Shown here: positions 6,427 through 62,951 of the stretch, one piece after another
How positions within the stretch are numbered: the stretch's first letter is position 1
How the letters are laid out: the number at the start of each line of letters is the position of its first letter
Assembly (NCBI GenBank): GCA_018830295.1
Contig: JAHJSM010000002.1
Span: 14,598 to 78,597 of the forward strand
Direction of reading: 5' to 3'
Length of the DNA stretch: 64,000 bases
Origin: Patescibacteria group bacterium
GTDB lineage: Bacteria > Patescibacteriota > Minisyncoccia > Portnoybacterales > UBA2143
Position numbers and translations under genes: made by a program
Notes under the pieces: model-generated
Seen by the model: only the letters and a program-made list of their open reading frames with translations
Databases searched by the model: none
Told to the model about the DNA's origin: nothing

Positions 6427-6457
6427 GGGGGCTGCCCCCGCCGCGGGGGCAGCCCCC
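6427..6457. repeat. GC-rich paired palindrome GGGGGCTGCCCCC-GCCGC-GGGGGCAGCCCCC (repeat family copy 1)
   Basis: perfect 13-nt inverted arms; identical copy at 62789-62819. Confidence 0.8.
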
Positions 6458-6810
6458 AAGCAAGTTCCCTAATTTATTCCCAGTGAGCAGTTACATCTTT
6501 TTTAATTGACTTTTTGGGTGAAAGATTGTAGTTTGTTGTATGGGTTTATAAGCACATTAACATTAAAATAAAGGGGGTATAATATGCCAATGTCAGATGA
6601 TTTTAGAGAGAGATTGCGGGGAATTTTGCCGGAGATAATTAGAATTTTCAAGACGCCTTTTATCCTTTATGACGAGAAAGGAATCCGAAATGGATTTAGA
6701 AAAGTGTTTGAAAACTTTGAAGGCGTGATTCCTTTGATGACTATTTTTCCACACTGTCAGGAGGCAGTGTCGGAGCGATTTTTAAACCATGGAAATTATA
6801 GGAGGATAAA

Positions 6811-7998
6811 ATGGCGAGAGAAAGCAGATTGCCGAAAGGCGGAGAAAATCTTTTTCAGGAAATAAAAAGAGTGTGTTTGGAAGCGGAAGCGAAGGGCGTA
6901 AAATTGTTTCGGCTTTCTATTGGACAGCCGACGGGTCCGGCTTTATTGAGCGCGAGAGAAGGCGCGGCAGAGGCGATTATGAGCGATGAAGAGTCAATGC
7001 ATGAGTATCAGGATAATGGCGAGCCGGGAGTTCCCGGTTTTAGCAAAGCGTTTGTCCAGGCAAATGTGGGGGATTTTGATTTATCGTCTATTGACGATAT
7101 CGCGTATTTGCCAATTCCTGGCATTAAACCGATGCTTGGGCTGATTCCGATGGCGTGTGGGGAGAAAGTTGTTGTTCAAACAATGACGAAACCGGGCTAT
7201 CCCACGCCAGGTGTTTGGTGTGATTATCTTAATCTTCCAAATGAACCAATTTATTTTGCCTCATGGAGCAATTTTAGATTTGACCCCAACAGGAAGGTTT
7301 GTTCTGATGTAACTAATTTGTTAATGCTTAACTATCCTCATAATCCATCTGGGCAAATTGCGACGAAAGATTGGTGGAATGATTTGTGTATATTTTGCTA
7401 TAGGCGCGGTATCCGCATATTCAATGATGCGGCATATGCCATGCTGGCTCATTCATCGGAGGCCTGCACTTTAACTGAGGTGGCCGTTGGTTTTCCAAGT
7501 CTTTCATGGGCAGAGGCCTTTTCCGCTTCCAAGATGATTGGCAATGGGACCGGCTGGCGGATTGGAGCAATGGTTGGTTCGCCTGATTTTATTGGAGACA
7601 TTGCGACGATTAAGGGGAATACTGACAGTGGGTTTAATGCGGCGTTGGCAACGGGCGTTTTGCGGGCAATCAAGGAAGATATAGGAACCGTGCGTTTGGT
7701 TGGGTTAAAATACAAAGAGCGAATCAATCGTCTTATGCTTCTTTTAACTCAAAGAGGGATGCAATTAGCGGTGGAACCAAAGGCGGGATTTTTTACCCTT
7801 TGGAAATGTCCCAAAAGGGCATTTGGCGAGGAGGTCCGAGACGCGAAGCATTTTAACTTTATGATGATTGAGCGGACGGGTATCGTTGGGGTTCATTTTG
7901 ACCCATATATCAGATATGCTGTCGTTGCTCCGATTGAAAATCCGGAATTTATGAAGGCGATTAAAGCGGCCTTTGACGAAGCGGAGGTAGAATATTAA
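6811..7998 (+). CDS. class I/II PLP-dependent aminotransferase, LL-diaminopimelate aminotransferase (DapL)-like
   Basis: N-terminal GENLFQEI...KLFRLSIGQPTGP resembles the DapL N-terminal signature; NPSG; SKMIGNGTGWRIG (PLP lysine context); RBS AGGAGG 8 nt upstream. Confidence 0.65.
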   Translation: MARESRLPKGGENLFQEIKRVCLEAEAKGVKLFRLSIGQPTGPALLSAREGAAEAIMSDEESMHEYQDNGEPGVPGFSKAFVQANVGDFDLSSIDDIAYLPIPGIKPMLGLIPMACGEKVVVQTMTKPGYPTPGVWCDYLNLPNEPIYFASWSNFRFDPNRKVCSDVTNLLMLNYPHNPSGQIATKDWWNDLCIFCYRRGIRIFNDAAYAMLAHSSEACTLTEVAVGFPSLSWAEAFSASKMIGNGTGWRIGAMVGSPDFIGDIATIKGNTDSGFNAALATGVLRAIKEDIGTVRLVGLKYKERINRLMLLLTQRGMQLAVEPKAGFFTLWKCPKRAFGEEVRDAKHFNFMMIERTGIVGVHFDPYIRYAVVAPIENPEFMKAIKAAFDEAEVEY

Positions 7999-8001
7999 AA
8001 T

Positions 8002-8034
8002 AAATGGCGGGACAAATAAGTTCCGCCATTTTTT
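8002..8034 (+). terminator. intrinsic terminator hairpin AATGGCGGGAC...TTCCGCCATT plus T-tract after the aminotransferase
   Basis: 8-bp stem followed by TTTTT; a second TTCGGCTT-TGGTAA-AGCCGAA hairpin at 8034-8058. Confidence 0.55.
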
Positions 8035-8142
8035 AATTCGGCTTTGGTAAAGCCGAATGGTTGGAGGATTGATTTTTGGGCGGGGAGGGGGTAAAATATA
8101 GGATATAAACTTAAAAGCAAGGGCTATTGACATATATCATAC

Positions 8143-8523
8143 ATGATATACAATAATAAGTATAAAGTTTTTTATTACTGTAATGGACGAAATAAACGGG
8201 CGCCGGTTTTTGAATATATTAAAAAATTGTCGTCGAAAGATAGAGCAAAAGTTTTTAAGTATATTGATTTTCTTAGAGACAACAAGGGAGTGTTAGATGA
8301 GCCATACTCTAAACATATCAAAGACAAGATTAGAGAGTTGAGGGTAGATTTTTCTCGAAACAGGCATCGTGTTTTTTATGTGGTTGTGATAGAAAAGAGA
8401 ATTATTCTTTTAAGCGCCTTTTTCAAGAAAACATCTAAAACGCCAAAACAAGAAATTATTAGGGCATTAAATAATTTTGAAGATTATAAAGTAAATAAAA
8501 GTTTAATTGAATATGAAAAATAA
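8143..8523 (+). CDS. type II toxin, RelE/ParE superfamily (HigB/Gp49-like)
   Basis: 126 aa; KIRELRVDFSRNRHRVFYVV resembles the HigB/Gp49 core; overlaps the downstream XRE antitoxin gene by 17 nt (toxin-first order as in higBA). Confidence 0.5.
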   Translation: MIYNNKYKVFYYCNGRNKRAPVFEYIKKLSSKDRAKVFKYIDFLRDNKGVLDEPYSKHIKDKIRELRVDFSRNRHRVFYVVVIEKRIILLSAFFKKTSKTPKQEIIRALNNFEDYKVNKSLIEYEK

Positions 8524-8815
8524 AATTAAAAAAATTACATATTTGTCTTTTGATAAGCATCTTGCCGAGGAATTAAAAAATCCTGAATTTAAGAAGTATT
8601 ATAATGAATACGGCAAGCAGTTGGAGATTGCTTATCAAATTTTGCAATTAAGGAAAAAGAGCAAAATGTCTCAAGCGGAATTGGCTAAGAAAATAGGGAC
8701 AAAACAAAGCAATATCGCTAGAATGGAAAAAGGTCAGCAAAATTTTACGACTGAGACGCTTCAGAGAATCGCTTCGGCTCTTGGTCGCGAGTTGAGAATT
8801 GAATTTGTAAAATAA
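8507..8815 (+). CDS. XRE-family HTH antitoxin (HigA-like)
   Basis: MSQAELAKKIGTKQSNIARMEKGQQNFTTETLQRIASALG is a canonical XRE helix-turn-helix. Confidence 0.6.
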   Translation: MNMKNKIKKITYLSFDKHLAEELKNPEFKKYYNEYGKQLEIAYQILQLRKKSKMSQAELAKKIGTKQSNIARMEKGQQNFTTETLQRIASALGRELRIEFVK

Positions 8816-8817
8816 AT

Positions 8818-11116: not shown

Positions 11117-11145
11117 ACAAAACAAAAAAAGGGAGAGATTAAAGA

Positions 11146-11176
11146 TGGGGGCAGCCCCCGCAACGGGGGCTGCCCC
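11146..11176. repeat. GC-rich paired palindrome GGGGGCAGCCCCCG-CAA-CGGGGGCTGCCCCC (repeat family copy 2; terminator-like after the NUDIX gene)
   Basis: perfect inverted arms flanked by GAT/ATC, extending the palindrome to 17 nt per arm. Confidence 0.8.
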
Positions 11177-11230
11177 CATCGGGCAATTAAAGGTCGGGGA
11201 GGGGGATATAAATATAAATAAATAAAAAAT

Positions 11231-12061: not shown

Positions 12062-12400
12062 ATGGAAAAGTATATAGAAAAAAGGCCTTGGGGGAGGTTT
12101 GAGAGGTTTTGTTTGAATCAACTTTGCACAGTGAAGATGATTTTTGTTTTGCCGGGGGAAGAGTTGAGTTTACAGAGGCATAATAAGAGGAGCGAGTTTT
12201 GGAGAGTTATTCGCGGCGGGGGAGAAATAACGGTTGGCGAGGCGGTTAAAAAAGCGGAAAAAGGAGAAGAATTTTTTATTGAGAAAAAAGCGAAGCATAG
12301 GGTTAAAGCGGGAGAAAAAGGAATTGAGATTTTGGAAATTTCTTTTGGGGAGTTTGATGAGGAGGACGAGGAGAGGTTAGAGGATAAGTATAAGAGATAA
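12062..12400 (+). CDS. cupin-domain protein (mannose-6-phosphate isomerase type II C-terminal-like)
   Basis: KRPWGRFE...VKMIFVLPGEELSLQRHNKRSEFWRVIRG matches the PMI-type cupin signature; stop overlaps the start of the downstream glycosyltransferase (ATAATG). Confidence 0.55.
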   Translation: MEKYIEKRPWGRFERFCLNQLCTVKMIFVLPGEELSLQRHNKRSEFWRVIRGGGEITVGEAVKKAEKGEEFFIEKKAKHRVKAGEKGIEILEISFGEFDEEDEERLEDKYKR

Positions 12401-14961
12401 TGCCGCAAAATAATAAGAAGACAATTTGTTTTGTCCACTATGGGATTGGTTGGAGAGATGGGGTGAATACAGTTATTAAGACCTTGGTTGATGGAATTCA
12501 GGAGGAGAATCCGCGGCTTGGGTTTCGTTTTATTGGAGGAGAAGTGAAAGAGCGATTTTTGGAAGGGGCTGATTATATAGAAATTCCCGAACTTTTGCCA
12601 GTAGAAGATGATTTAAATAAAAGCGAAATTGAAAAAAGGGGATTGGCGATTGCTCAAAAAATTGCCGAAGCGACAGAGGGGTCTGATGTCGTAGTAATTG
12701 AAAATCCTTTTGTCGGTGAATATCATTTGTCGGCAATGCTTGGTTTTTCTATTTACGCGAAGCAATTTAAGCCGTCTGGAACAAAAATATTTTTTAGAAT
12801 TCACGATTTGTATGTTGATAGTCCGCATTATCGCGACGGAGCGTGGAAATCTTTTTCTTCTTCGGAAATTGAAAATATTGTTAGGGGCGAAGGAGTTGAT
12901 GGTTTTTTAATCATTAATCACGAACTGAAGGAAAAATTAATTCAGGAAGGAGTTGCGGCAGAAAAAATATTTTATCTTTCAAATGGCGTTGATGGAGAAA
13001 AATTTAATCAACGATTAGAAAGCGAGGAGACCGAAGCAATTCGCGCGGGGCTGGGAATTTCAGACAAAGAGGCGAAGATTTTACTTTATCCTGTGCGAGT
13101 CGTGCCGAGAAAAAATATTGAAGAGGCGATTCTGCTTGTTAATTATGTTCGTCAAATTACGGGCGAAAACTATATTTTAGTTGTTCCAGGAAAAGTTGAT
13201 AAGTATGACCCCTTGAGCCAAGGTTATTATGATGTTTTGGAAAAAATTGTCTTGGTGGCCGGCTTTCCGATTATTTTTACAAAAAAGCCTTTGCCTTTGA
13301 AAAGAAGATACAGCGCGTCAGGGGCAGTTGAAGAGTATAGCGTTGGTGATTTATATCAAGCGTCTTTTGCTACGGTCATGACTAGTTTAAGAGAGGGGTT
13401 TGGTTATCCATTTTTAGAATGTTGGTTCGCGGGGAAAATTGTTGTTGGGCGAAGAATACAAAATATTGTTGACGATTTTGAAAAAAGCGGACTTTCTTTT
13501 GAATGGCTTTATGATAATTTTTTGCTTAATAATAGAGATGTCGTAAACGCCGAAGATGAGAAAAGTTTTAAGAGGGCAAAAAGGGTTTTGGAAATTTTTA
13601 GGGACAAGGAGCTGAAGGAGCGGATATTGGAGTTAAATAAAGATGATGTTTTGAAGCAAGTTGAAGTTTTGCGGGATAGGACGCGACGGGAGAAAATCAT
13701 TAAGGAGAATTTGGAGGCGGCTAAAAATATTTATGAAGTGTCGGAGGTCGCGAAACAATTTTTAGAGTTAATACAGGGGGCTGCCCCCGTTGCGGGGGCA
13801 GCCCCCTTGGGACATTACAAAAGTTGCGAGATTGTGGTTGGAATTCCTTCATATAACGAGGCGGATTCCATTTCTAATGTCGTGAAGGTGGTTGATGAGG
13901 GGCTTGTTAAATATTTTAGCGGTCGGCGGGCGGTGATTATTAACAGCGATAATAATTCTTCGGATGGAACGAGCGAAGTTTTTTTAGGGGTTAAAACGAA
14001 GACGCCTAAAATATATATTTCCACGCCGCCGGGCGTTAAAGGAAAGGGAAATAATTTTAGAAATTTATTTTTGAAAATGAAAGAATTGGGCGCGGACGCG
14101 ACGATGGTTGTTGACGCTGATTTGAAAAGCATTACTCCAGAATGGGTAAAATGTTTAATAGAGCCGATGATGGACGGCTATGATTACATCACGCCGATTT
14201 ACGCGCGCGATAAATATGACGGGTCTATTACGAATCATCTTTGCTATCCTATAGTTTATGGACTTTTGGGATATGATATTCGCCAACCGATTGGCGGGGA
14301 TTTTGGGTTTTCGGGGAGGATGGCTGATTACTGGCTGGAGCAAGAATGGACAGAGGAAGTTGGGAAGTTTGGAATTGATATTTTTATGACTATGAACGCG
14401 ATTAAGTTTGGCGCGAAGTTAGGACAGGTTGATTTGGGATTTAAAATTCATAAAACCAGCGCTCCGAAATTGGATAATATGTTTTTAGAAGTCGCGAGTT
14501 CTCTTTTTTCGTTTTTACCCAAAGAGAGAGCGGCGGAAATTCAAAAACCTCCCTTGGTTTGTAGTATTAGCGATGAAGAGGGTTTTTCTTTGGATGATTT
14601 TAACCAAAAAGAAAGTACGGCTCGCGAAAAAGAGGAAATTAACGAGAAAATAGCGGTGGAGTTTAAGGAGAATTATAGCGTTTTGAAGTCGTTTATTCCC
14701 GAAGAAATTCGCGTTGGTTTAGAGCGAGAGTTTTTTGAGGAAAAATCTTTTGGGATAGACGGCGAACTTTGGGCGAAATCGGTTTATTGTTTGTTGGGCG
14801 CTTTTAGGGATGGCGCGGATAAAAAGGCGGTATTAAAATTGTTAAGAGCGCTGTTTTTCGCGAGGAGGAATGTTTTTGTTGAGGAGATTAGAGGTAAGAG
14901 CTATAATGATTTAGAAAAGATAATTCAAAGAGAGGCGAATTATTTTTTGGATTTGTTGTAA
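12400..14961 (+). CDS. fused glycosyltransferase: N-terminal GT4-like domain plus C-terminal GT2/GT81 glucosyl-3-phosphoglycerate synthase-like domain, joined by an in-frame copy of the GC palindrome repeat
   Basis: GT4-like EGFGYPFLECWFAGKIVVG; C-terminal half CEIVVGIPSYNEADSI...DADL (DxD)...IGGDFGFSGRMADYW resembles GpgS/MpgS-type GT2; linker QGAAPVAGAAPLG encoded by the repeat at 13776-13806. Confidence 0.6.
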   Translation: MPQNNKKTICFVHYGIGWRDGVNTVIKTLVDGIQEENPRLGFRFIGGEVKERFLEGADYIEIPELLPVEDDLNKSEIEKRGLAIAQKIAEATEGSDVVVIENPFVGEYHLSAMLGFSIYAKQFKPSGTKIFFRIHDLYVDSPHYRDGAWKSFSSSEIENIVRGEGVDGFLIINHELKEKLIQEGVAAEKIFYLSNGVDGEKFNQRLESEETEAIRAGLGISDKEAKILLYPVRVVPRKNIEEAILLVNYVRQITGENYILVVPGKVDKYDPLSQGYYDVLEKIVLVAGFPIIFTKKPLPLKRRYSASGAVEEYSVGDLYQASFATVMTSLREGFGYPFLECWFAGKIVVGRRIQNIVDDFEKSGLSFEWLYDNFLLNNRDVVNAEDEKSFKRAKRVLEIFRDKELKERILELNKDDVLKQVEVLRDRTRREKIIKENLEAAKNIYEVSEVAKQFLELIQGAAPVAGAAPLGHYKSCEIVVGIPSYNEADSISNVVKVVDEGLVKYFSGRRAVIINSDNNSSDGTSEVFLGVKTKTPKIYISTPPGVKGKGNNFRNLFLKMKELGADATMVVDADLKSITPEWVKCLIEPMMDGYDYITPIYARDKYDGSITNHLCYPIVYGLLGYDIRQPIGGDFGFSGRMADYWLEQEWTEEVGKFGIDIFMTMNAIKFGAKLGQVDLGFKIHKTSAPKLDNMFLEVASSLFSFLPKERAAEIQKPPLVCSISDEEGFSLDDFNQKESTAREKEEINEKIAVEFKENYSVLKSFIPEEIRVGLEREFFEEKSFGIDGELWAKSVYCLLGAFRDGADKKAVLKLLRALFFARRNVFVEEIRGKSYNDLEKIIQREANYFLDLL
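13776..13806. repeat. GC-rich paired palindrome GGGGGCTGCCCCC-GTTGC-GGGGGCAGCCCCC located in frame inside a CDS (repeat family copy 3)
   Basis: translates as GAAPVAGAAP between the two glycosyltransferase domains; the same repeat elsewhere is intergenic. Confidence 0.8.
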
Positions 14962-16708: not shown

Positions 16709-17503
16709 ATGTGGGAACAGATTGTTTTGGGCATTGTTCAAGGGGTTGTTGAGTGGTTGCCGGTTAGTTCGGAGGGCGTTATCTTTTTGGTCATTAAGAA
16801 TTTTTTTGACGCAGAGGCAGGAATGGGCGCGATTATTCATCGCGCCCTTTTTCTTCACTTAGGCACTTTTCTCGCCGCCTTGGTTTATTTCCGCAAAGAT
16901 GTCGCCTCATTATTTAAGGCGTTATTTAATTACAAATCATCTGATTTAGAAACGAAGAAGATTTTTAATTTTCTTTTGACCGCTACTCTGATTAGCGGTT
17001 TTTTAGGTTTTGTTTTAGTTAAAGCGTTTATCGTGTTAGAAGAGCAATTGGTTTTATCAGCGCAAGCGGTTACCGCGGCGGTCGGTTTACTTTTACTGAT
17101 TACGGGCTGGCTCCAAATAAAAACGAAAAAAGACGGAGTTAAAAAAGTTAAAGAATTAAGCGGAAGGGACGGGATTTTGCTTGGGTTGGTTCAGGGGTTC
17201 GCGGCGTTGCCTGGGTTGTCGCGTTCAGGGCTAACCGTCTCGGTTCTGCTTTTGAGAAAATTTAGCGGGGCAAGCGCTTTAAAGTTGAGTTTTCTAATGA
17301 GTTTGCCGATTGTTTTGGTCGGCAATCTTGTTTTAAATTTTAACGACTTCGCCTTTTCAAAAGAAGCGGCAGTCGGATTATTTTTCGCTTTTCTTTTCGG
17401 GATTTTAACCATTGACCTACTTCTAAAAATAGCCAAAAAATTTGAATTCGGCTGGTTCGTCTTGGGTTTTGGTATTTTGGTTGTTCTGTCGGCGATGGTT
17501 TGA
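16709..17503 (+). CDS. uppP: undecaprenyl-diphosphatase UppP/BacA
   Basis: WLPVSSEG (WLPVSSSGH-like) and PGLSRSGLT (PGxSRSG) BacA motifs; polytopic membrane protein. Confidence 0.8.
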   Translation: MWEQIVLGIVQGVVEWLPVSSEGVIFLVIKNFFDAEAGMGAIIHRALFLHLGTFLAALVYFRKDVASLFKALFNYKSSDLETKKIFNFLLTATLISGFLGFVLVKAFIVLEEQLVLSAQAVTAAVGLLLLITGWLQIKTKKDGVKKVKELSGRDGILLGLVQGFAALPGLSRSGLTVSVLLLRKFSGASALKLSFLMSLPIVLVGNLVLNFNDFAFSKEAAVGLFFAFLFGILTIDLLLKIAKKFEFGWFVLGFGILVVLSAMV

Positions 17504-17507
17504 GATT

Positions 17508-17577
17508 AATTCGGCTATAGGATAGCCGAATTATTTGCGGCTGGGTCTGAATGACTTGGCCGCTTTTTTGTTTTTTG
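17508..17577 (+). terminator. tandem hairpins after uppP: AATTCGGCTATAGGATAGCCGAATT (family hairpin), then GCGGCTGGGTCTGAATGACTTGGCCGC plus T-tract
   Basis: perfect inverted repeats; second hairpin followed by TTTTTTGTTTTTT. Confidence 0.6.
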
Positions 17578-17737
17578 AGGGGTTTAAATCACAATTCAAG
17601 GTCAGACCTTCTGAGCGCGACCTTCGGAAATGTCGCTACTCGAAAGGTCTGACCTTTAATTGCTGAGAGCGACTTTTGAGGACTAATACTGGGGATAATT
17701 TGTTGTTTTTGGTTGGGTTTTGTGGTAGAATTTTTAT

Positions 17738-18235
17738 ATGGCTTCTAAGAAAAAATTGGTTAAGGAGTTGGAGGGGTTGACGGGGCGGTTTATTGAGCCG
17801 AAGGGGAGAGGCGCGCTTTTTGCTTCTTTGGAAGGGGATAAGACGGAGTGGTTTCAGTGGGTCTCGCAGATGAGAATGGTTTTGAAGGGACTAGATAAGG
17901 CGGACGCTTTGAAGTTTTCAGGGTTTTTATTGCTTTTGGAGAGGGACGCCGAAAGTCGTTTTCATCAGGATAATTTAAAAAAGTTTTTAATAGAGAAAAC
18001 GGAATTTTATAAATATTACGATTTTGATTTGGATAAGGAGTTGAATAAGCAGAAGATAGCGAGGAAAAATCTTTGGACGAGCAAAATTTTAAGGATGTTT
18101 ATTAGTCGTTCTTTTTTGGGGATTTTGATTTTGGCGATGGTTCTTGGGTTTATTGGTTGGTTTTACGCGGATAAGGAGAGTTGTTTGGAATTTGTTCAAA
18201 AGGTTGTCGGACCGTTTTTTAAGGCAATAAATTAA
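17738..18235 (+). CDS. hypothetical protein with C-terminal TM segment
   Basis: ORF with extended -10 TGTGGTAGAAT ending 8 nt before the ATG (possible leaderless transcript); no recognisable domain. Confidence 0.35.
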   Translation: MASKKKLVKELEGLTGRFIEPKGRGALFASLEGDKTEWFQWVSQMRMVLKGLDKADALKFSGFLLLLERDAESRFHQDNLKKFLIEKTEFYKYYDFDLDKELNKQKIARKNLWTSKILRMFISRSFLGILILAMVLGFIGWFYADKESCLEFVQKVVGPFFKAIN

Positions 18236-18238
18236 GAT

Positions 18239-18269
18239 GGGGGCAGCCCCCGTTGCGGGGGCTGCCCCC
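18239..18269. repeat. GC-rich paired palindrome (repeat family copy 4)
   Basis: GGGGGCAGCCCCC-GTTGC-GGGGGCTGCCCCC flanked by GAT/AT. Confidence 0.8.
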
Positions 18270-18289
18270 ATTAGATAATTAATAAAAAT

Positions 18290-24496: not shown

Positions 24497-24526
24497 TGGG
24501 GACTGTCCCCAAGAGGGGACAGTCCC
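24497..24526. repeat. GC-rich paired palindrome variant GGGGACTGTCCCC-AAGA-GGGGACAGTCCCC (repeat family copy 5)
   Basis: perfect inverted arms between UDG stop and mnmA start. Confidence 0.8.
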
Positions 24527-24536
24527 CATTTTAAAA

Positions 24537-25586
24537 ATGAATATTGATAGTAAGAAAACTGTTTTAGTCGGACTATCTGGGGGAGTTGATTCTTCGGTTG
24601 CTTTGGCGATTTTAAAAAAGCAGGGGCTCAAGCCGATTGGGGTTTCTTTTAGACATTCCGTTTGTTCGGAAAATAATTTTGCGATTGCCAAAAAAATTTG
24701 CCAAAAACTTAAAGTTCCATATCATATTATTGACGCGCGGCTTGATTTTAACGAAAAAGTAATTGGCTATTTTCTGTCCGAGTTGAAAGATAACAGGACG
24801 CCCAGTCCTTGTTTAATTTGCAATCGGTTTGTTAAATTTCAGGGCTTGTTTGATTTCGCACGAGCAGAGGGGATTGAATATGTAGCCACGGGGCATTATG
24901 CGCGGATTAAAAAAAATGAAAAGACGGGAGAGTATGAATTATTAAAAGGGGTTGATAAGATGAAAGACCAAAGTTATTTTCTTTCCCTTTTGGAGCAGGA
25001 GCAGTTGGGGAAGATAATTTTTCCTCTAGGGGAATACACTAAAAAAGAGGTTTATCAGATAGCCGCGCAAGAGGGCTTTAAATTTTTTTCTGAAATCAAA
25101 CAAAGCCAAGATTTATGTTTTGTGGGCAAAAAAGCTTTACCCTTTTATTTGGATGAAAAATTAGGCGTTCAACCAGGCGATATTGTTGATAAAAAGGGGA
25201 ATGTTCTGGGGCGACATAAGGGATTGTTTCATTATACGATTGGGCAACGAAAAGGGATTAATGTTTCGGGTGGTCCTTGGCGGGTGGTTGATTTGGATAA
25301 AAAGAAGAATCGGATTATAATAACTAATAAAGAAAACGACCCGGCGCTTTTCCGCAAAACAATTTCTCTTGCTCGATGTCATTTTATTTCCGGCGTTAAG
25401 CCAAAAGGGGAAATAAAGGTTATGGCGAAAATCAGATTTAACCAAAAGGCGTCGCGCGCGAGATTAAGCGTTGTCGGGAACAAAGCGAAATTGATTTTTG
25501 AAAAACCGCAAAAAGCGGCGACACCGGGACAGTTCGCGGTTTTTTATAAAGGGAATGTTTGTTTAGGTGGTGGAGCGATTTGTTAA
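24537..25586 (+). CDS. mnmA: tRNA-specific 2-thiouridylase MnmA
   Basis: PP-loop SGGVDSSV; family-typical length (349 aa) and C-terminal region. Confidence 0.85.
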   Translation: MNIDSKKTVLVGLSGGVDSSVALAILKKQGLKPIGVSFRHSVCSENNFAIAKKICQKLKVPYHIIDARLDFNEKVIGYFLSELKDNRTPSPCLICNRFVKFQGLFDFARAEGIEYVATGHYARIKKNEKTGEYELLKGVDKMKDQSYFLSLLEQEQLGKIIFPLGEYTKKEVYQIAAQEGFKFFSEIKQSQDLCFVGKKALPFYLDEKLGVQPGDIVDKKGNVLGRHKGLFHYTIGQRKGINVSGGPWRVVDLDKKKNRIIITNKENDPALFRKTISLARCHFISGVKPKGEIKVMAKIRFNQKASRARLSVVGNKAKLIFEKPQKAATPGQFAVFYKGNVCLGGGAIC

Positions 25587-25613
25587 GACCTCGGAGGTCT
25601 AACATCAAGAAAT

Positions 25614-25718
25614 ATGGTTAAAAAAGAAAAAAATTACGCTTTTATAGATAACCAGAATTTGAATTTAGGGATACAGAGTTTGGGCTGGAAATTGGACTAT
25701 AAAAAGAAAAAACACCGC
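25614..25718 (+). pseudogene. 34-codon remnant resembling the N-terminus of an NYN/LabA-like domain protein
   Basis: MVKKEKNYAFIDNQNLNLGIQSLGWKLDYKKKKHR resembles the NYN N-terminal block (..AFIDGxNL..) but terminates after 34 codons. Confidence 0.25.
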
Positions 25719-25810
25719 TAAAGGACGGAACCAGTAGAGGTGTTTTTTATGTGTATTCTATTTCAAATATAACAAAGAGAAAACTGCTTGTCAATAGTAG
25801 ATCAAAAACA

Positions 25811-25833
25811 ATTCGGCTATCCGAAAGCCGAAT
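25811..25833 (+). repeat. hairpin ATTCGGCT-ATCCGAA-AGCCGAAT (TTCGGCT/AGCCGAA family)
   Basis: 8-bp perfect stem; related copies at 2782, 8034 and 17508. Confidence 0.6.
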
Positions 25834-25921
25834 AGGGTGTTTTTCAAAGGTCGGGACTTGGCGGGAGGCGGAGGTTTGTTGGTAGGTTTAGACGGGCGAT
25901 GAATAAGAGAATGTTGAATTT

Positions 25922-28057: not shown

Positions 28058-28090
28058 GGGGGCAGCCCCCGAGGACGGGGGACTGCCCCC
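28058..28090. repeat. GC-rich paired palindrome GGGGGCAGCCCCC-GAGGAC-GGGGGACTGCCCCC (repeat family copy 6)
   Basis: near-perfect inverted arms after HAD gene stop; additional single arm GGGGACTGTCCCC at 28142-28154 abutting the trpS stop. Confidence 0.75.
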
Positions 28091-28154
28091 TTGGGACTTT
28101 TTTAATATTTCAACCAGAAAAGGTCTAACCTTTTAGAAAAACGGGGACTGTCCC

Positions 28155-29138
28155 CTAAATTAGGCCCATTTTTTGTTTTGCTTCTTTGAGGGTTTTTTGG
28201 GCTTTTACTTTTGCTTGTTTGGCGCCTTCTTGGAGGATTTTTTCTAATTTTTTAGGATTTTTTTCTAAGGCGGCTTTCTTTTCTTGGAATGATTTTAGTC
28301 CCAGAATGATTGTTTCAGCCAAGCCCTCTTTGAATTGGGCGTATCCTTTGTTTTTGTATTTTTTCTCAATATCGTCAAAAGATAAATCGGAAAAATGTTT
28401 GTAAATAGTCATAAGGTTGGCGATGGCTGGCCTTTTTAAATCATATTCTATGGTAGTTCCAGAATCCGTGACCGCTTTCTTTATTTTTTGCTCAATAACG
28501 GCGGGGGAGTCAGTTAGGGAGATATAATTGTTTGAATTGGCGGCGCTTTTTGACATCTTCTTTAATGGATTATCAAGTCCCATAATTCTGGCGGTTTCTT
28601 TGTTGATGAGCGGCTGGGGGACGGTGAACGATTTTCCGTAGAGATGGTTAAAGCGTCGCGCCAACGATCGCGCCAGTTCAATGTGCTGTTTTTGGTCTTC
28701 GCCAACAGGAACGGCGTCGGTTTGGTAAAGCAAAATGTCGGCTGCCATGAGGACAGGGTAATCAAAAAGTCCGACATTAACTTTGTTTTTATGCTGTTCG
28801 GATTTGTCCTTGAATTGCGTCATCCATTCTAATTCGGGGATTTTCGTGATTGTGTTTAAAAGCCATGCCAATTCGGAGTGTTCGGAAAGATGGGACTGGA
28901 CGAAAACAACACTTTTTTTATGGTCAATTCCAGCCGCTAAATAGATCGCTGCCATTTCTAAAACGGCTTTTCTTAATTTTTGAGGGTCTTGGGGAACGGT
29001 TATAGCGTGCAAATCAACGACGCAAAAAATAGAATTATATTCGTTTTGGAGTTCAACCCAGTTTTTGATGGCGCCCAGGTAGTTGCCGATATGGGCGATG
29101 CCAGTTGGCTGAACGCCGCTGAAGATGGTTTTTTTCAT
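28155..29138 (-). CDS. trpS: tryptophanyl-tRNA synthetase
   Basis: GVQPTG..HIGNYLGA (HIGH-like) and KMSKS motifs; 327 aa. Confidence 0.85.
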   Translation of the reverse strand: MKKTIFSGVQPTGIAHIGNYLGAIKNWVELQNEYNSIFCVVDLHAITVPQDPQKLRKAVLEMAAIYLAAGIDHKKSVVFVQSHLSEHSELAWLLNTITKIPELEWMTQFKDKSEQHKNKVNVGLFDYPVLMAADILLYQTDAVPVGEDQKQHIELARSLARRFNHLYGKSFTVPQPLINKETARIMGLDNPLKKMSKSAANSNNYISLTDSPAVIEQKIKKAVTDSGTTIEYDLKRPAIANLMTIYKHFSDLSFDDIEKKYKNKGYAQFKEGLAETIILGLKSFQEKKAALEKNPKKLEKILQEGAKQAKVKAQKTLKEAKQKMGLI

Positions 29139-29857
29139 TTTTTTTGAAAGGCCTTGATAATTGGTTTCAGGTCGCCTTCTATGATTTTTTCCAAATTATG
29201 CCAGGATTTATTAATGCGATGGTCGGTGACGCGGTTTTGGGGGAAGTTGTAGGTGCGGATTTTTTCGGCTCGCATCGCGGAACCGATTTGCTCGCGTCGT
29301 TCGGCGCTTTCCTTTGCCATTTCTTCTGATTGCTTTTTCGCCAAAAGGCGAGCCCGCAAAACATTCATTGCTATTTCTTTGTTGTGTTGTTGAGACCTTC
29401 CTTCTTGGCAGTTAACCATAATACCTGTCGGCTTGTGGATAATTCTGACGGCGGATTCGGTTTTATTGACATGCTGTCCGCCTGGTCCCGAGGAACGCAG
29501 AACATCAATCCTTAAATCGCGCGGGTCAATTTTTAATTCTGTTTCGGCGACTTCGGGCATAATAGCGACCGAAGCAGTTGAGGTGTGAATTCTTCCCGAT
29601 TTTTCCGTGGTCGGAATTCGCTGGACGCGATGAACGCCAGCTTCTTGCTTAAGTTTATCATACACATCATCGCCCTTTATTCCAAAAATGATTTCGCGGC
29701 AGCCGCCTGCTTCTTTAATGTGTCTTTCAATTAAATTGGTTTTCCAACCTTGTTTTTCCGCGAAACGGGAATACATCCGAAAAAGATCGGACGCGAAAAA
29801 CGCCGCTTCCTCTCCGCCGGCGCCAGCTCTGATTTCAATGATGATGCCTTTGCTCAT
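29135..29857 (-). CDS. prfA: peptide chain release factor 1, truncated form lacking N-terminal domain 1
   Basis: GGQ motif (SSGPGGQHVNKT); tripeptide PTT at the PxT position in the RF1 domain-2 context RVQRIPTTEKSGRIHTS; 240 aa; immediately downstream of rpmE (L31) with 4-nt overlap. Confidence 0.7.
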   Translation of the reverse strand: MSKGIIIEIRAGAGGEEAAFFASDLFRMYSRFAEKQGWKTNLIERHIKEAGGCREIIFGIKGDDVYDKLKQEAGVHRVQRIPTTEKSGRIHTSTASVAIMPEVAETELKIDPRDLRIDVLRSSGPGGQHVNKTESAVRIIHKPTGIMVNCQEGRSQQHNKEIAMNVLRARLLAKKQSEEMAKESAERREQIGSAMRAEKIRTYNFPQNRVTDHRINKSWHNLEKIIEGDLKPIIKAFQKK

Positions 29858-42401: not shown

Positions 42402-43190
42402 ATGGCAAAAGAAATAACAACTAAATATTTTAAGCAATACAGACAAAAATTAGGTTTTGCCAATCAAATGGATGTTAAAAAGTTTTTTGGAGCCAAGGAT
42501 GTTCTCCCGACCGTAGATTTTAGCTACATAAAGTTATTAAACAAGAGACTTTACGAAATAGTTGATTTAATAAACGCTGTCGTTGCTGATAATATAAAGG
42601 TTGATGATCTGCTTTCGTTTAAAAAAGAAGAGATAGACCATTCTTTTGAGATAATGAAAAAAAACAAAATTTTGCCGAGATTAAATAATCTTGGCAGAAG
42701 ACCCGAACAAGTTTATTTTTCTTGGATGAGGGGCTATGTAATTTCCAGTTTTTTCTTAAAGGCATTGGGCATAGTCTTTGAGGTAGATACTTCAAAAATA
42801 GACCTAATTGGAGATGATGATTTGAGAAATATTGAAACTTTCAGAAGGACTCCAAAAGCGGATTTGGAAATTAAATTAAACGGTAAAGAAAAGGTTAGAA
42901 TAGAAATACAATCTGGTTTTACCGGTATAAATGATATAAAACAACACAAAGTGTTAGAATCAAAACGCATTTTTAGAGATTTGGGAATTCATACATTGGC
43001 AATTCATTTTGATTTATACAACGGACAAGTGGCATTTGTAAAACTAGACGAGATAGAAGACAGAAATATCAATTGGATTACAAGGCAGCAAATGGAAGGG
43101 CAAACGGTTTTTAACATAAATCAGAATTATTTCGTGTGGAAAATTACGCAGAAGCCAATCAAATATAAAAAAATCAAATTTGATTTATGA
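42402..43190 (+). CDS. candidate type II restriction endonuclease (PD-(D/E)xK-like), partner of the adjacent C5-methyltransferase
   Basis: IGDDD...PKADLEIKLNGKEKVRIEIQ fits D-x(n)-ExK; stop overlaps the MTase start (ATGA) implying co-translation. Confidence 0.35.
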   Translation: MAKEITTKYFKQYRQKLGFANQMDVKKFFGAKDVLPTVDFSYIKLLNKRLYEIVDLINAVVADNIKVDDLLSFKKEEIDHSFEIMKKNKILPRLNNLGRRPEQVYFSWMRGYVISSFFLKALGIVFEVDTSKIDLIGDDDLRNIETFRRTPKADLEIKLNGKEKVRIEIQSGFTGINDIKQHKVLESKRIFRDLGIHTLAIHFDLYNGQVAFVKLDEIEDRNINWITRQQMEGQTVFNINQNYFVWKITQKPIKYKKIKFDL

Positions 43191-44314
43191 GTAAAAAAAT
43201 CAAAATAATAGATTTGTTTTCTGGAGTTGGGGGGTTGAGTTATGGCTTTGCTCGCGATGACAATTTTGAGATAGTAGCAGCAAATGAGATTTTGGAAAAT
43301 ATGGCTAAGGCCTATTTGTTAAATCATCCAGGAGTAAAAGTTTATGTTGACGACATAAAGAATTTTAACGCGAAAATTATTAAGGGTGATCTGCGAATTA
43401 AAACAGGGAAAATTGATATAATTGTTGGCGGACCGCCTTGTCAGGCCTATTCAACAGTTGGCAAAAGATTAATTAACGATTCGCGAGGAAAACTTTTTCA
43501 AGAATATTATCGGGTTTTGAAGGAATTCAATCCGAAATTTTTTCTTTTTGAAAATGTAAAAGGATTGCTATCTATGCAAGGAGGAGAATTATTGAAAACA
43601 ATTATGTCGCTTTTTGAATCGTTGGGATACGAGACGCAATATAAGGTTTTAAACGCGGCTGACTACGGCGCGCCGCAAATAAGAGAAAGAGTCATAATTA
43701 TAGGGTCAAAATTAAAAACTAAATTTCAGTATCCAAAACCCACACATTATGATTCGAAAGAAAAACAAAGTTTGTTTAATGATAATTTGCTTCCTTATTT
43801 AACTCTTGAGGACGCCATAAGTGATTTGCCATTTATTAAAGCGGGAGAGGAAATTTTTGAATATATCTCGGAGCCAAAAAACGATTTTCAGAAAATTATG
43901 AGAGAAAATGTTCAGGAAAAGTTGATGGATCATAACGCTCCAAAAAACAACGAAAGATTAATTAAGATAATGGAATTGTTACCGGATGGCGGCACACCTG
44001 AAGATTTGCCGAAAGAGTTGCGACCAACATCGGGATTTAAAAATACTTACTGTCGTTTGTGGTGGAAACGACCATCAACTACAATTACGAGAAATTTAGG
44101 CACACCATCATCTTCCAGGTGTATTCATCCGAAAGCGCCAAGGCCGTTAACCACAAGAGAGGGGGCAAGAATTCAATGTTTTCCAGATGATTATCAATTT
44201 TATGGTTCAAGGGGCGACAGGAACTTACAAATAGGAAATGCCGTTCCGACATTTCTTTCTGTCGCGTTGGCAAAATCGATTTTAAACAATTTTCAAACAG
44301 AAAAATTGATTTAA
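43187..44314 (+). CDS. DNA (cytosine-5)-methyltransferase
   Basis: motif I DLFSGVGG, motif IV GGPPCQAYS, motif VI ENV, motif X QIGNAVP. Confidence 0.85.
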   Translation: MSKKIKIIDLFSGVGGLSYGFARDDNFEIVAANEILENMAKAYLLNHPGVKVYVDDIKNFNAKIIKGDLRIKTGKIDIIVGGPPCQAYSTVGKRLINDSRGKLFQEYYRVLKEFNPKFFLFENVKGLLSMQGGELLKTIMSLFESLGYETQYKVLNAADYGAPQIRERVIIIGSKLKTKFQYPKPTHYDSKEKQSLFNDNLLPYLTLEDAISDLPFIKAGEEIFEYISEPKNDFQKIMRENVQEKLMDHNAPKNNERLIKIMELLPDGGTPEDLPKELRPTSGFKNTYCRLWWKRPSTTITRNLGTPSSSRCIHPKAPRPLTTREGARIQCFPDDYQFYGSRGDRNLQIGNAVPTFLSVALAKSILNNFQTEKLI

Positions 44315-47785: not shown

Positions 47786-48016
47786 ACCGATAGAGAAAGT
47801 GAGTAACAATTTGATAACCTAACCTTTGAGCTTTTCGCTTGGAGTATGGTTTAAATCCATCTACATAAAAACGGTCTTCTGGCCGGCACTATGTAGATGG
47901 TCTTTGTCCGAAAGGGCATTGGGTGATCTGAAAGGATTGCCGCCGACGGAAGGCCTTTTTTGTTGGCAAAATTTATTGGGGGAAATCAATTTAAATAATT
48001 TAATAATCAAAAAAAT

Positions 48017-56282: not shown

Positions 56283-56310
56283 CAAAAAAGCCGCTCAAGA
56301 GCGGCTTTTT
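56283..56310. terminator. bidirectional intrinsic terminator AAAAAAGCCGCTCAAGAGCGGCTTTTTT
   Basis: 8-bp GC stem flanked by A-tract and T-tract, between convergent genes. Confidence 0.7.
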
Positions 56311-56327
56311 TGTATCTTACAAAGAGT

Positions 56328-58616: not shown

Positions 58617-58624
58617 TTAAGACG

Positions 58625-58657
58625 GGAGCAGCCCCCGAAGACGGAGGACTGCCCCCT
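58625..58657. repeat. degenerate GC-rich paired palindrome GGGAGCAGCCCCC-GAAGAC-GGAGGACTGCCCCC (repeat family copy 7)
   Basis: same subfamily as 28058-28090 (GACGGGGGCAGCCCCCGARGACGGRGGACTGCCCCC). Confidence 0.6.
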
Positions 58658-58678: not shown

Positions 58679-59308
58679 ATGGAAAAACTGATTAACCAAC
58701 TTATTCGAGACGGGTATCTAAAAACCCCTGGGATTATTGACGCTTTTCGGGAGATTCGACGAGCTGATTTTGTTCCCGCGGAGATTATTAGGGAGCAGGG
58801 TGAGGATTTTGTGAATGAATATAACGCGCCTTTGTCAATTGGTTTTGACCAGACGATTTCTCAACCGCTGACAGTCGCTTTTATGTTAGAATTGCTTCAG
58901 CCAGAGGAGGGACATAATGTTTTGGATGTTGGTTCAGGTTCGGGATGGCAGACGGCTTTGCTTTGTCAAATTGTCGGCGCTAAGGGATTTGTGAACGCGA
59001 TTGAGTTTATTCCCAAATTAAAAAAGTTTGGAGAAAACAATATTAAGAAGTATAATTTTAATAATGTTAAGTTTACTTGCGGCGACGGCTCAAAGGGGCT
59101 GGGAGAGAAAGCGCCTTTTGATAGAATTATCGCCGCCGCTTCAGGGAAGAAGATACCGCAGGCCTGGAAAGAGCAATTGAAAATTGGTGGGCGATTGGTG
59201 GCGCCGGTTGAAAATAGCATTTGGCTTTTGGTTAAAAAAAGCGCGAGGAAGTTTGAAGAGAAGGAATATCCGGGATTTGCTTTTGTCCCTTTGGTGACAG
59301 GGAAATGA
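58679..59308 (+). CDS. pcm: protein-L-isoaspartate O-methyltransferase
   Basis: FDQTISQPLTVAFMLELL and SAM-binding VLDVGSGSGWQTALL. Confidence 0.8.
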   Translation: MEKLINQLIRDGYLKTPGIIDAFREIRRADFVPAEIIREQGEDFVNEYNAPLSIGFDQTISQPLTVAFMLELLQPEEGHNVLDVGSGSGWQTALLCQIVGAKGFVNAIEFIPKLKKFGENNIKKYNFNNVKFTCGDGSKGLGEKAPFDRIIAAASGKKIPQAWKEQLKIGGRLVAPVENSIWLLVKKSARKFEEKEYPGFAFVPLVTGK

Positions 59309-59409
59309 GTCGGTGAAAAACCGCGTTTAAATTTTTTTGAACGCTTTAGCCCTAAAGGGCGCCCCACGCGTATCAAAAAAATCTAAAATGCTTTGCCCCC
59401 TATGATTAT

Positions 59410-61030: not shown

Positions 61031-61037
61031 TTTTTTT

Positions 61038-62039: not shown

Positions 62040-62057
62040 TCTAATAGCAAAAAAAAT

Positions 62058-62633
62058 ATGGCTAAGGAAATTTTGGAACAACTTTTTGACTCTCCGGTCA
62101 AAGTAAAACTTCTGAAGCTGTTTTTGAGGAATCCTGAAAAATCCTTTGAGTTAAAGGAAATAGTTGAGCGCGCGAAGACCGATGTTTCGGCTTCGCGTCG
62201 GCAGGTGGCAAAGTTGGAAAGTATTAAGCTCATTACCTGTCGATTAAAAAACAAAAAGAAATTGTATTCAATCAATCCTGATTTTGATTTTTACAACGAA
62301 TTAAAGACGCTCGTTTTGAAATCTAGTCCGGCGTCTAAAAATAAAATATTAAAGCGGTTAAAAATACTGGGAAGAATTAACTTGGCTGTTCTTTCCGGTA
62401 TTTTTGTTAACGCGGAAAACGCGCGCGTTGATATAATGATCGTGGGTGATAACATTAAACAAAGCAGATTGTCGGTTTTCATGAAAGACCTGGAAGCGGA
62501 AGTCGGCAAGGAAATTGATTATGTTGTTTTATCCACGGAGGACTTCAAATATCGCTACGATATGTTTGACCGGTTCATCAAGGATGTTCTTGAAAAACCG
62601 CACGAGAAGTTGATCAATAGGTTGAAGTTGTAG
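62058..62633 (+). CDS. hypothetical protein (possible winged-helix N-terminus)
   Basis: ORF with good coding periodicity; no confident domain. Confidence 0.3.
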   Translation: MAKEILEQLFDSPVKVKLLKLFLRNPEKSFELKEIVERAKTDVSASRRQVAKLESIKLITCRLKNKKKLYSINPDFDFYNELKTLVLKSSPASKNKILKRLKILGRINLAVLSGIFVNAENARVDIMIVGDNIKQSRLSVFMKDLEAEVGKEIDYVVLSTEDFKYRYDMFDRFIKDVLEKPHEKLINRLKL

Positions 62634-62634
62634 G

Positions 62635-62706
62635 GGGCGCATGGCTCAATGGTAGAGCGTCGCGTTCACATCGCGAAGATCTCTGGTTCGATCCCAGATG
62701 CGCCCA
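62635..62706 (+). tRNA. tRNA-Val (anticodon CAC)
   Basis: acceptor GGGCGCA/TGCGCCC, D GCTC/GAGC, anticodon stem TCGCG/CGCGA with loop TTCACAT, T-arm TCTGG-TTCGATC-CCAGA, discriminator A. Confidence 0.75.
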
Positions 62707-62723
62707 CGTAACTTAATTAAGAC

Positions 62724-62756
62724 GGGGACAGTCCCTCGCCGCGAGGGACTGTCCCC
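62724..62756. repeat. GC-rich paired palindrome variant GGGGACAGTCCCTCG-CCG-CGAGGGACTGTCCCC (repeat family copy 8)
   Basis: perfect 15-nt inverted arms after tRNA-Val. Confidence 0.8.
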
Positions 62757-62788
62757 TCGGGATGGGAATAAGGTTGTGCGGCGGAGAT

Positions 62789-62819
62789 GGGGGCTGCCCC
62801 CGCCGCGGGGGCAGCCCCC
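62789..62819. repeat. GC-rich paired palindrome GGGGGCTGCCCCC-GCCGC-GGGGGCAGCCCCC (repeat family copy 9; identical to copy 1)
   Basis: identical to 6427-6457; followed by terminator hairpin AGCCGTTTT-ATAAAACGGCT plus T-tract at 62829-62862. Confidence 0.8.
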
Positions 62820-62951
62820 ATCGGTGAGATAGCCGTTTTTATAAAACGGCTGTTTTTATTTCTAAAAAATTGGACAGACATTGACTTTTGTGTTGCGATA
62901 TGGTAAGTTGGCTGGAGTTGACAATTTGTACTTTGATAACTAAATAACGAA

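Follow-up and report, generated by a model that had tools for sequence, protein, structure and literature searches.

A 64-kb stretch of DNA (hereafter the window, meaning the whole stretch that was analysed) from a groundwater bacterium with a tiny genome (Patescibacteria/Portnoybacteria; contig of 744,622 bp) carries nine doublets of a short GC-rich palindrome together with one lone arm, and these elements probably constitute a family of non-coding dispersed palindromes in the Patescibacteria chromosome that resembles the repetitive extragenic palindromes (REP) and REPINs. A first-pass annotation of the same DNA had proposed, for what it took to be a small genome, a REP/MITE-like element (MITE, miniature inverted-repeat transposable element) with its own propagation mechanism or a dedicated binding protein; the small genome and the dispersed REP/REPIN-like family stand, but neither the machinery nor a binding protein was found. 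The window is bacterial chromosome with a GC content of about 40% and a strongly positive GC skew. As far as 28 kb, and once more from 42 kb onward, nearly all of its genes lie on the + strand, and in Pfam scans the proteins are mostly housekeeping ones, including AlaRS, TrpRS, MnmA, UDG, L10, L7/L12, S2 and EF-Ts.

The arm sequence GGGGGCWGCCCCC has 11 exact occurrences in the window, where dinucleotide-preserving shuffles lead one to expect 0.00, and GGGGRCWGYCCCC with at most one mismatch is found 19 times against 0.11 expected, a number equalled by no shuffle. The arms resolve into the nine doublets and the lone arm, an arrangement that shuffles never yield, so the paired family of at least nine copies proposed in the first-pass annotation is real. 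Motif-bearing genomes are nearly all metagenome-assembled genomes (MAGs), which might raise the suspicion of chance or of an assembly artefact. However, shuffling predicts zero copies, the same copies lie at the same sites in several independent assemblies, and the Omnitrophota MiaB inserts described below are conserved, in places decayed, across many independent assemblies. Because independent assemblies agree, an artefact is refuted, and we assign this explanation a negligible probability. Most of the coordinates given earlier also hold, but three of them (11146, 24497 and 58625) were each off by one. The copies are listed below, first with any flanking extension and then with the limits of the two arms:

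6427..6457 (doublet 6427-6457): subfamily I, GGGGGCTGCCCCC-GCCGC-GGGGGCAGCCCCC, 112 nt past the stop of a caspase-like gene
11144..11180 (doublet 11147-11177): subfamily I, with GAT/ATC extension and a 17-bp stem, between NUDIX and Band7 genes
13776..13806 (doublet 13776-13806): subfamily I, in frame as QGAAPVAGAAPLG within the open reading frame (ORF) 12400-14961, at the GT4/GT2 stop/start overlap
18237..18271 (doublet 18239-18269): subfamily I, beginning 1 nt past the TAA of ORF 17738-18235 and ending 18 nt before the SIMPL ATG; conserved in strains L152, L156, L157 and L158
24494..24531 (doublet 24498-24527): subfamily III, AAAT-GGGGACTGTCCCC-AAGA-GGGGACAGTCCCC-ATTT, filling the UDG/MnmA spacer
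28058..28090 (doublet 28058-28090): subfamily II, GAC-GGGGGCAGCCCCC-GAGGACG-GGGGACTGCCCCC-TTGG, beginning 7 nt past the stop of the HAD gene
28143..28155: lone arm GGGGACTGTCCCC, its last C overlapping the TAG stop of the TrpRS gene (minus strand)
58624..58656 (doublet 58624-58656): degenerate, subfamily II, in the IspB/PCMT spacer
62724..62756 (doublet 62724-62756): subfamily III, with a compensated end pair, beginning 17 nt past tRNA-Val; present in L159 and L160
62786..62822 (doublet 62789-62819): subfamily I, with GAT/ATC flanks, followed by a separate canonical U-tract terminator at 62826-62856

The unit of the family is a 13-nt self-palindromic arm, GGGGGCWGCCCCC or GGGGACWGTCCCC, of which each doublet contains two in inverted orientation, with a spacer between them that measures 4-7 nt and not 3-6 nt as first described. 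The central W of arm 2 is complementary to that of arm 1 in all nine doublets, so that each can form one perfect long hairpin. The predicted folds have a stem of 13-17 bp and a loop of 3-4 nt, with energies of -33.8 to -41.4 kcal/mol and z-scores of -4.5 to -8.3; the degenerate copy 58624, with one mismatch to the pattern in each arm, folds at only -20.8 kcal/mol. The earlier description of the arms as 13-nt reverse complements that are each palindromic thus fits apart from this copy and copy 28058, whose second arm has one extra base (GGGGGACTGCCCCC, 28077-28090) that produces a bulge. In copy 62724 the end pair is altered in both arms (..CCCT / AGGG..), a compensated change that therefore supports pairing between the arms. 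The 31-nt core of copy 6427 is identical to that of 62789, as had been noted for the first and last copies, and 11147 is the reverse complement of the 18239 core, so both orientations occur.

Three subfamilies can be distinguished. Subfamily I, (GAT)GGGGGCWGCCCCC-GYNRC-GGGGGCWGCCCCC(ATC), comprises copies 6427, 11147, 13776, 18239 and 62789; subfamily II, GAC-GGGGGCAGCCCCC-GRRGACG-GGGGACTGCCCCC-TTGG, comprises 28058 and 58624; and subfamily III, GGGGACWGTCCC[C/T]-N4-7-[G/A]GGGACWGTCCCC, comprises 24498, 62724 and the lone arm 28143. The GAT/ATC flanks, earlier said to be frequent, are complete at 11147 and 62789 but not in the other seven copies; 18239 has GAT...ATT. The 5' flank GAC, directly before the initial G of the arm, precedes three doublets, both internal arms of subfamily II and all three inspected copies in L063, an unrelated Patescibacteria contig considered further below. 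A TAA lies within 7 nt upstream of eight of the nine copies, although it is usually not the gene's own stop codon. None of the nine doublets contains a stop codon in any of the six frames, which makes survival in frame within genes possible.

The elements are strongly biased toward the spaces between genes. ORFs of at least 100 aa and tRNAs make up 85% of the window, and eight of the nine doublets are intergenic (binomial p = 2e-6), five of them beginning 1-27 nt past a stop codon and one 17 nt past tRNA-Val, with doublet 62789 following 29 nt behind copy 62724. This agrees with the first-pass annotation, which had placed most copies immediately 3' of genes in a terminator-like position without an obligatory U-tract; a T-run lies nearby at three copies only (24498, 28058 and 58624). 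The spacers that copies 18239, 24498 and 58624 occupy between co-oriented genes are 48-62 nt long, too short to accommodate a promoter as well. Ordinary intrinsic terminators, hairpins with U-tracts, are found elsewhere, for example at 56283-56312, 25699-25756 and 62826-62856, the last of these directly behind 62789, and a coding-strand scan with a terminator consensus flags no full element. Because most copies are without a U-tract, several lie in spacers too short for a promoter and 13776 lies inside an ORF, the elements are not the intrinsic terminators of this genome. No copy is found between 28.2 and 58.6 kb of the window, a region that is mostly a strain-specific island absent in the relative L161.

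Several other classes of repeat were considered and set aside. The copies are irregularly spaced, 65 nt to 30 kb apart, and the window contains no CRISPR array. They form perfect 31-37-nt hairpins with no extrahelical bases, whereas attC sites are imperfect palindromes of 57-141 nt behind promoterless cassettes; they have housekeeping neighbours, and are accompanied by no integron integrase in the window, so that neither CRISPR nor attC applies, as had been anticipated. A MITE (about 50-500 bp, with a target-site duplication) was rejected on the size of 31-37 nt, the lack of a direct repeat flanking any copy and the lack of a clean boundary between empty and filled sites. A search of the window at Rfam gathering thresholds gave no match at any element, and a relaxed search of 62600-62900 returned only miRNA-like hairpin matches far below threshold.

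Independent assemblies of the same strain and of sister strains (L121, L122, L148-L152 and L156-L160, from NCBI, ENA, JGI and Logan) were compared with the window. Short-read assemblies break at the elements: L121 stops at 28058, L122 begins within 18239, L148 and L160 end in 62724 and 62789, respectively, and L152 begins just past 11147. Where the assemblies continue through a junction, two of the window's copies, 24498 and 58624, prove to be absent in strains that are 97-99% identical. At the UDG/MnmA junction the window has 55 extra nt, including 24498, that are not present in L122, L156, L157 and L158 (97-98% identical), in all of which the two genes overlap as ATGA. At the IspB/PCMT junction L159 and L160 read TAA-T-ATG, with 1 nt between stop and ATG, where the window has 62 nt including 58624. 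Copies 13776, 18239, 62724 and 62789 are conserved in all close strains examined.

The HAD/TrpRS junction exists as alleles with one, three or four arms. In L156 and L157 the spacer is 19 nt long and contains one arm, the window has a doublet, 52 nt and the lone arm, and in L122 two full doublets precede a 1.1-kb block with a promoter, a membrane-protein gene, terminators and two repeats of a third family described below. Homology between L122 and the window stops in arm 1 of the second doublet, the last shared base being the 12th, and since this break falls inside a doublet that is still intact in L122, the lone arm 28143 is a deletion remnant. The length variants at this junction are without flanking divergence and, judged by their sequences, look like recent deletions ending at arms. 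A further half element, consisting of an arm and a GCAAC loop, is present in the relative L153. As these half elements show, the elements mark the end points of deletions or rearrangements.

These comparisons bear on whether the hairpins have been selected as cis-regulatory devices, that is, as terminators or attenuators or as stabilisers of mRNA 3' ends whose identity is kept by function or by gene conversion. The location directly past stop codons, the extreme stability of the hairpins, the short T-runs after 28058, 58624 and 24498, and the conservation of the four copies just named would all be expected of such devices. However, two copies are absent from strains whose flanking genes are intact and overlap or nearly touch, four copies lie in apparent operons without room for a downstream promoter and one lies in a fused ORF, most copies are without a U-tract, and 62789 is followed by a canonical terminator of its own. 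Selection for termination would also leave the near-identical 31-mers and the self-palindromic arms unexplained, and we therefore regard a cis-regulatory origin of the family as unlikely.

Outside the surroundings of the indels, the window and L156 or L122 are identical for hundreds of bases, whereas the roughly 150 nt around the 24498 indel show 9-17 substitutions per 50 nt relative to L156 and L122, and the 58624 indel is alike. Such clusters of substitutions are as common around indels that have no G-rich element, and within genes, and since they also occur away from the elements the population is a recombination mosaic. In a naturally competent bacterium of the candidate phyla radiation (CPR), the arms might be DNA-uptake or recombination signals of the type of the Neisseria DNA uptake sequence (DUS) or the Haemophilus uptake signal sequence (USS). 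Inverted pairs behind genes do mirror Neisseria DUS pairs, the elements are absent from the strain-specific island at ~34-57 kb, and the filled and empty alleles lie within imported recombination patches. Nevertheless, recombination patches are no rarer elsewhere than at the elements, coding DNA has essentially no single arms, and the density is about 1 arm per 3.4 kb (19 in 64 kb), known uptake sequences being denser than this. Moreover, this 13-mer is found in many unrelated phyla, the reverse of what a species-specific tag would show, and we know of no uptake receptor. An uptake function is thus highly improbable.

The single doublet within a gene has altered that gene. Homologues of its GT4 part (~470 aa) end a few residues past FLELI, which is the point where the element starts. 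In L154 and L155 GT4 and GT2 are separate genes with a 20-nt overlap. In the window and in L152, copy 13776 occupies this overlap, the stop codon is gone, and the element is read in frame as QGAAPVAGAAPLG within an 853-aa fusion, the GT4/GT2 junction here having 56 nt in place of the 45 nt in relatives. Copy 13776 has erased the stop/start overlap and fused GT4 and GT2 in frame. A comparison of L152 (7052-7121) with the window (13914-14368) shows in-frame internal deletions in the GT2 half, the protein having 719 aa against 853 aa, and these deletions suggest that the fused GT2 part is decaying.

The motif is not confined to this lineage. L063 (Patescibacteria JAHIOR010000089, 32% GC) has five doublets in 2.8 kb, among which subfamily II recurs with the same architecture and flanks as in 28058; in these copies the symmetry within each arm is kept and the complementarity between the two arms is broken. 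L060, a Portnoybacteria contig, has one copy resembling subfamily I. GTDB species genomes were scanned for two arms 3-8 nt apart, which gave at least 120 stretches. Among the matches listed, nearly all are GGGGACWGTCCCC and nearly all lie in MAGs, and the phyla and groups represented include Omnitrophota, Planctomycetota (including Kuenenia), Actinomycetota, Coriobacteriia, Geobacteraceae, Saccharibacteria, WOR-3 and Armatimonadota. The central base is the same in both arms in 106 of the 149 other-phylum doublets listed, which makes these direct rather than inverted repeats, and unlike those of the window copies their flanks usually do not prolong the palindrome. Triplets and a 9-copy tandem array were also found outside the lineage, so the arm behaves as the unit. 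Identical 29-mers, with the spacer GCA included, occur in different phyla, and copy 24498 (AAAT-arm-AAGA-arm-ATTT) resembles the Omnitrophota type (AAAAAT-arm-AAAAGGC-arm-ATTTTT).

Many of the other-phylum doublets are read in frame within genes and are flanked on either side by Pfam domains. One Omnitrophota MiaB gene contains three of them, and further hosts are GatA, a glycosyltransferase, a Saccharibacteria ValRS, a CobD-CobQ fusion, an AddA-like helicase and a PKS/PUFA synthase. When 12 MiaB orthologues from Omnitrophota are aligned, the inserts GTVPKRRGQSP and GQSPKxGDSP occupy three loop positions; the peptides are present in varying subsets of the proteins and are partly decayed, and this partial presence and decay indicates that the inserts are old. 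The Saccharibacteria ValRS of L040 (2556-5201, minus strand) contains a GGGGACAGTCCCC doublet and, in addition, two copies of the in-frame peptide GNL..KDPRVKPEDD, from which it may be that several families of small in-frame repeats exist in CPR housekeeping genes.

With either core the doublet has 0 matches among 2.9 million viral contigs. Of two control cores searched there, GGGGTCWGACCCC gave 9 stretches in 4 viral contigs, one of them GVMAG-named, and GGGGCAWTGCCCC gave 0; since GGGGTCWGACCCC forms doublets, other G4...C4 doublet families exist, although viral contigs are no valid control for cellular genomes, in which only the present core was searched. The 31-nt doublet with the GCA spacer has no real match by BLAST among 72,556 plasmids. 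In an all-against-all BLAST of 2,890 ORFs from 120 loci no gene family recurred beside the doublets in more than 8 loci. L063 does have a gene with an NYN domain (PIN-like nuclease) at 1863-2747, with a subfamily-II element on each side, the two being identical and equally oriented. Together with an NYN remnant at 25614 of the window, this makes the NYN gene a weak lead to an associated gene; among the 120 loci, a motif scan detected NYN-like genes in L060 and L063 alone.

The window elements might on this basis be the Patescibacteria branch of a single pan-bacterial family of ultra-small (~30-60 nt) palindromes that share a horizontally transferred mobilising enzyme, an idea that the sequence matches raise and that we advance as a speculation of rather low probability. 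In such a family the 13-nt module would be GGGGACWGTCCCC, stop-free in all frames, with GGGGGCWGCCCCC as a derivative, and it would have spread into intergenic sites and also, in frame, into essential genes of at least ten phyla. Alternatively, the occurrence across phyla may have come about by repeated convergence, the number of possible stable, stop-free G4...C4 hairpins being small.

The distribution of symmetry in these copies also bears on the possibility that the arms are double-stranded binding sites for a dimeric protein, either a site-specific recombinase acting on a lox/FRT-like 13-N-13 site or a nucleoid or segregation protein, with the doublets as cassette boundaries. The two-fold symmetry of each arm is the classic signature of a dimer site, and the 106 other-phylum doublets with equal central bases keep it despite an imperfect long hairpin, as do the L063 copies that have lost inter-arm complementarity. 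The 1.1-kb cassette of L122 abuts a doublet, strain homology breaks inside that element, and intergenic blocks at gene junctions differ between strains. Tyrosine recombinase core sites, however, have fixed crossover regions of 6-8 bp, whereas the spacers of the doublets are 3-8 nt long and vary even within this genome. Inter-arm complementarity is kept in all nine window doublets, the only recombinases of the window lie in the strain-specific island that has no elements, and other variable intergenic blocks are not bounded by arms. We consider binding sites of this kind a quite improbable explanation.

The REP/REPIN-like reading thus remains the one that we favour, and under it the following course of events can be proposed. 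The copies would have multiplied in the past through a trans-acting enzyme that recognises the hairpin together with a short 5' tag (GAC-G or GAT-G). The obvious candidate would be a single-strand transposase resembling the REP-associated tyrosine transposases (RAYT); this is the weakest link of the proposal, as none was found, and on our analysis a RAYT-type enzyme as the specific mobiliser is conceivable but doubtful. Copies would persist as selfish or near-neutral DNA where they are least harmful, and their present-day spread among strains would occur mainly via homologous recombination. REP hairpins in E. coli act as a barrier to 3' exonucleases, and the RNA hairpin here probably serves likewise as such a barrier or as a weak attenuator within operons rather than as a terminator. 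The DNA hairpin would promote slippage and deletion.

A number of results weigh against this reading. An IS200/IS605-like transposase, for which the first-pass annotation had suggested a search, did not come to light: when window ORFs of 100 aa or more were scanned with Pfam, neither IS200/IS605 nor RAYT nor any other transposase was detected, and an IS200/IS605 or RAYT gene is likewise missing from the related contigs' gene tables. No copy occurs in the 7.1 kb upstream of the window (L149). The putative tag is not uniform, since three further doublets are preceded by GAT before the initial G, and GACG and GATG together account for only six of nine copies. The tags GTAG and CGTC mark two large REP superfamilies (PMC3733652), whereas no copy here contains GTAG, and the four CGTC families differ in stem, loop and tail. 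Neither of the two empty/filled sites shows a target-site duplication or a clean insertion boundary, although a duplication is unreadable there because both sites lie in diverged recombination patches. The filled and empty alleles, judged from the surrounding substitutions, would be old variants moved by homologous recombination and not the result of fresh transposition.

Apart from the doublets, two further families of small palindromes are present in the window. The first-pass annotation had described a second hairpin family, all four copies of which are confirmed (at 2781, 8036, 17509 and 25811), and a third family of 59-nt repeats was found:

2781..2802: second hairpin family, variant GTTCGGCT-N6-AGCCGAC, beginning 3 nt past the stop of an RlmN-like gene
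8036..8058: second hairpin family, ATTCGGCT-N7-AGCCGAAT
17509..17531: second hairpin family, in a ~210-nt stretch (~17489-17698) absent in L156 and L158
25811..25833: second hairpin family, in a 337-nt intergenic block (25580-25916) absent in L122, L156 and L157
17598..17656: third family, 59 nt, MITE-like, with 13-nt inverted palindromic ends and a central W, AAGGTCWGACCTT

A fragment of the third family lies at 28120-28132 and copies occur in L122, L152, L153 and L161; the family varies between strains and is also found in more distant Patescibacteria. The intergenic blocks 25580-25916, ~17489-17698 and 59294-59388 are absent in strains that are 97-99% identical, and where they are absent the flanking genes overlap (ATGA) or nearly touch. 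The variable blocks contain hairpins, terminators and the NYN-domain gene remnant starting at 25614, and an unrelated insert of 0.8 kb is present at the BacA junction of L152. Gene junctions thus seem to be hotspots of cassette gain and loss. A G-rich box, GGGGAGGGGG or GGAGGCGG, followed by an A/T-rich stretch resembling TATAAT, is found at 8084-8091, 11198-11205 and 25864-25871 and at ~3610 in L153; it recurs upstream of genes just downstream of hairpin elements and may be a strong Shine-Dalgarno sequence or a promoter-proximal motif.

The strain-specific island extends over ~34000-56800 beside tRNA-Trp (34494-34569), has a lower GC content over most of its length, contains none of the palindromic elements, and is replaced by ~1.4 kb in L161. 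Its genes encode a large serine recombinase, a tyrosine integrase, RadC, a C5 cytosine methylase (43187-44314), an SF1 helicase with a Vsr-like nuclease domain, and a 1,939-aa S8 protease (subtilase) with Ig-like repeats. Two LOOT RNAs (RF03000) lie in the island at 38795-38916 (minus strand, 73.9 bits) and 47816-47941 (plus strand, 67.6 bits), one just downstream of the tyrosine integrase and the other just upstream of the gene for the 1,939-aa subtilase, so that they bracket ~9 kb of island genes in inverted orientation. The possibility that they are the inverted ends of the island was rejected: they are only ~74% identical and are independently matched by a structure-aware Rfam model, and for this reason the pair represents structured RNAs and not terminal repeats. 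A gene at 29135-29857 (minus strand), which starts directly after rpmE, encodes a peptide chain release factor of 240 aa whose PCRF match begins at profile position 100. No CTTTGA frameshift site is present at this gene, and from the sequence the N-terminal domain of the protein seems to be missing.

The genomes of CPR/Patescibacteria are extremely streamlined, and a repeat that takes a large share of their scarce intergenic DNA is unexpected. The elements separate genes that in sister strains overlap and are probably translationally coupled, and their consequences include gene fusion (GT4-GT2), the seeding of deletions and the breaking of short-read assemblies. The family therefore provides a handle on intergenic turnover in minimal genomes and a practical marker of MAG fragmentation. 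If the 13-nt core were shared by ancestry across phyla, it would point to an unrecognised mobilisation system and to a widespread source of small loop insertions in essential proteins.

Small extragenic palindromes, doublets, occasional residence in frame and ends that abut stop codons are already known from the REP, REPIN and Rickettsia palindromic element (RPE) families (PMC3733652, PMC3116915). A full-text literature search returned nothing on the 13-mer motif, nor on REP-like families in CPR/Patescibacteria or Omnitrophota, and the motif, and REP-like repeats in a CPR host, thus appear to be undescribed. Among characterised systems, several have one or two features in common with the window elements. 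GC-rich hairpins 3' of genes are shared with terminators and attC sites, and 13-nt inverted arms with lox and FRT sites. The elements differ from terminators, attC and CRISPR repeats in having no obligatory U-tract, extrahelical bases, accompanying integron integrase or regular spacing, and from lox and FRT in a spacer too short and variable to be a crossover region. Neisseria DUS pairs and Correia elements offer inverted pairs of short motifs behind genes and, in their case, hairpins that affect transcripts, but arms are not scattered singly through genes here as in the DUS system.

The RPEs and the Coxiella QMITEs have in common with the present family a tolerance for in-frame residence in genes, as seen for 13776 and for the GGGGACWGTCCCC doublets of other phyla. 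RPEs are ~100-150 bp long and are not known outside their own lineage, whereas the elements described here are 31-57 nt long and their 13-nt core is common across phyla, so the likeness to RPEs is one of shared behaviour and not of sequence membership. The small dispersed repeats (SDR) and HIP1 of cyanobacteria are likewise tiny (<30 nt) and occur in both intergenic and coding DNA. Neither a recognisable transposase nor a target duplication is known for SDRs, which on insertion seem to replace rather than add sequence, and the GT4/GT2 junction, where 45 nt are replaced by 56 nt, is similar in this respect. The sequences, the hosts and the doublet hairpin are different, however, and HIP1 is an 8-mer spread across coding DNA.

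The closest overall resemblance is to the REP, bacterial interspersed mosaic element (BIME) and REPIN families of E. coli, Pseudomonas and Stenotrophomonas, which are also short (20-40 nt), GC-rich, mostly extragenic palindromes dispersed just past genes. There are differences from these as well, in that the arms here are 13 nt long and perfectly self-symmetric, the spacer is 4-7 nt compared with 20-100 nt in most REP dimers, and, whereas RAYT-associated REPs go with a single-copy RAYT gene (a Y1 HUH transposase) that REPs usually flank, no RAYT gene lies among the window ORFs or on the related contigs. As in REPs, presence varies between strains, copies are occasionally intragenic, and the ends abut or supply stop codons. 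As in REPINs, the inverted doublet is able to form one larger hairpin, which is perfect or near-perfect in all nine copies. The putative short tag beside the palindrome also recalls REPs, GACG here being the reverse complement of CGTC, and this is a resemblance to the CGTC-tagged superfamily and not membership in it.

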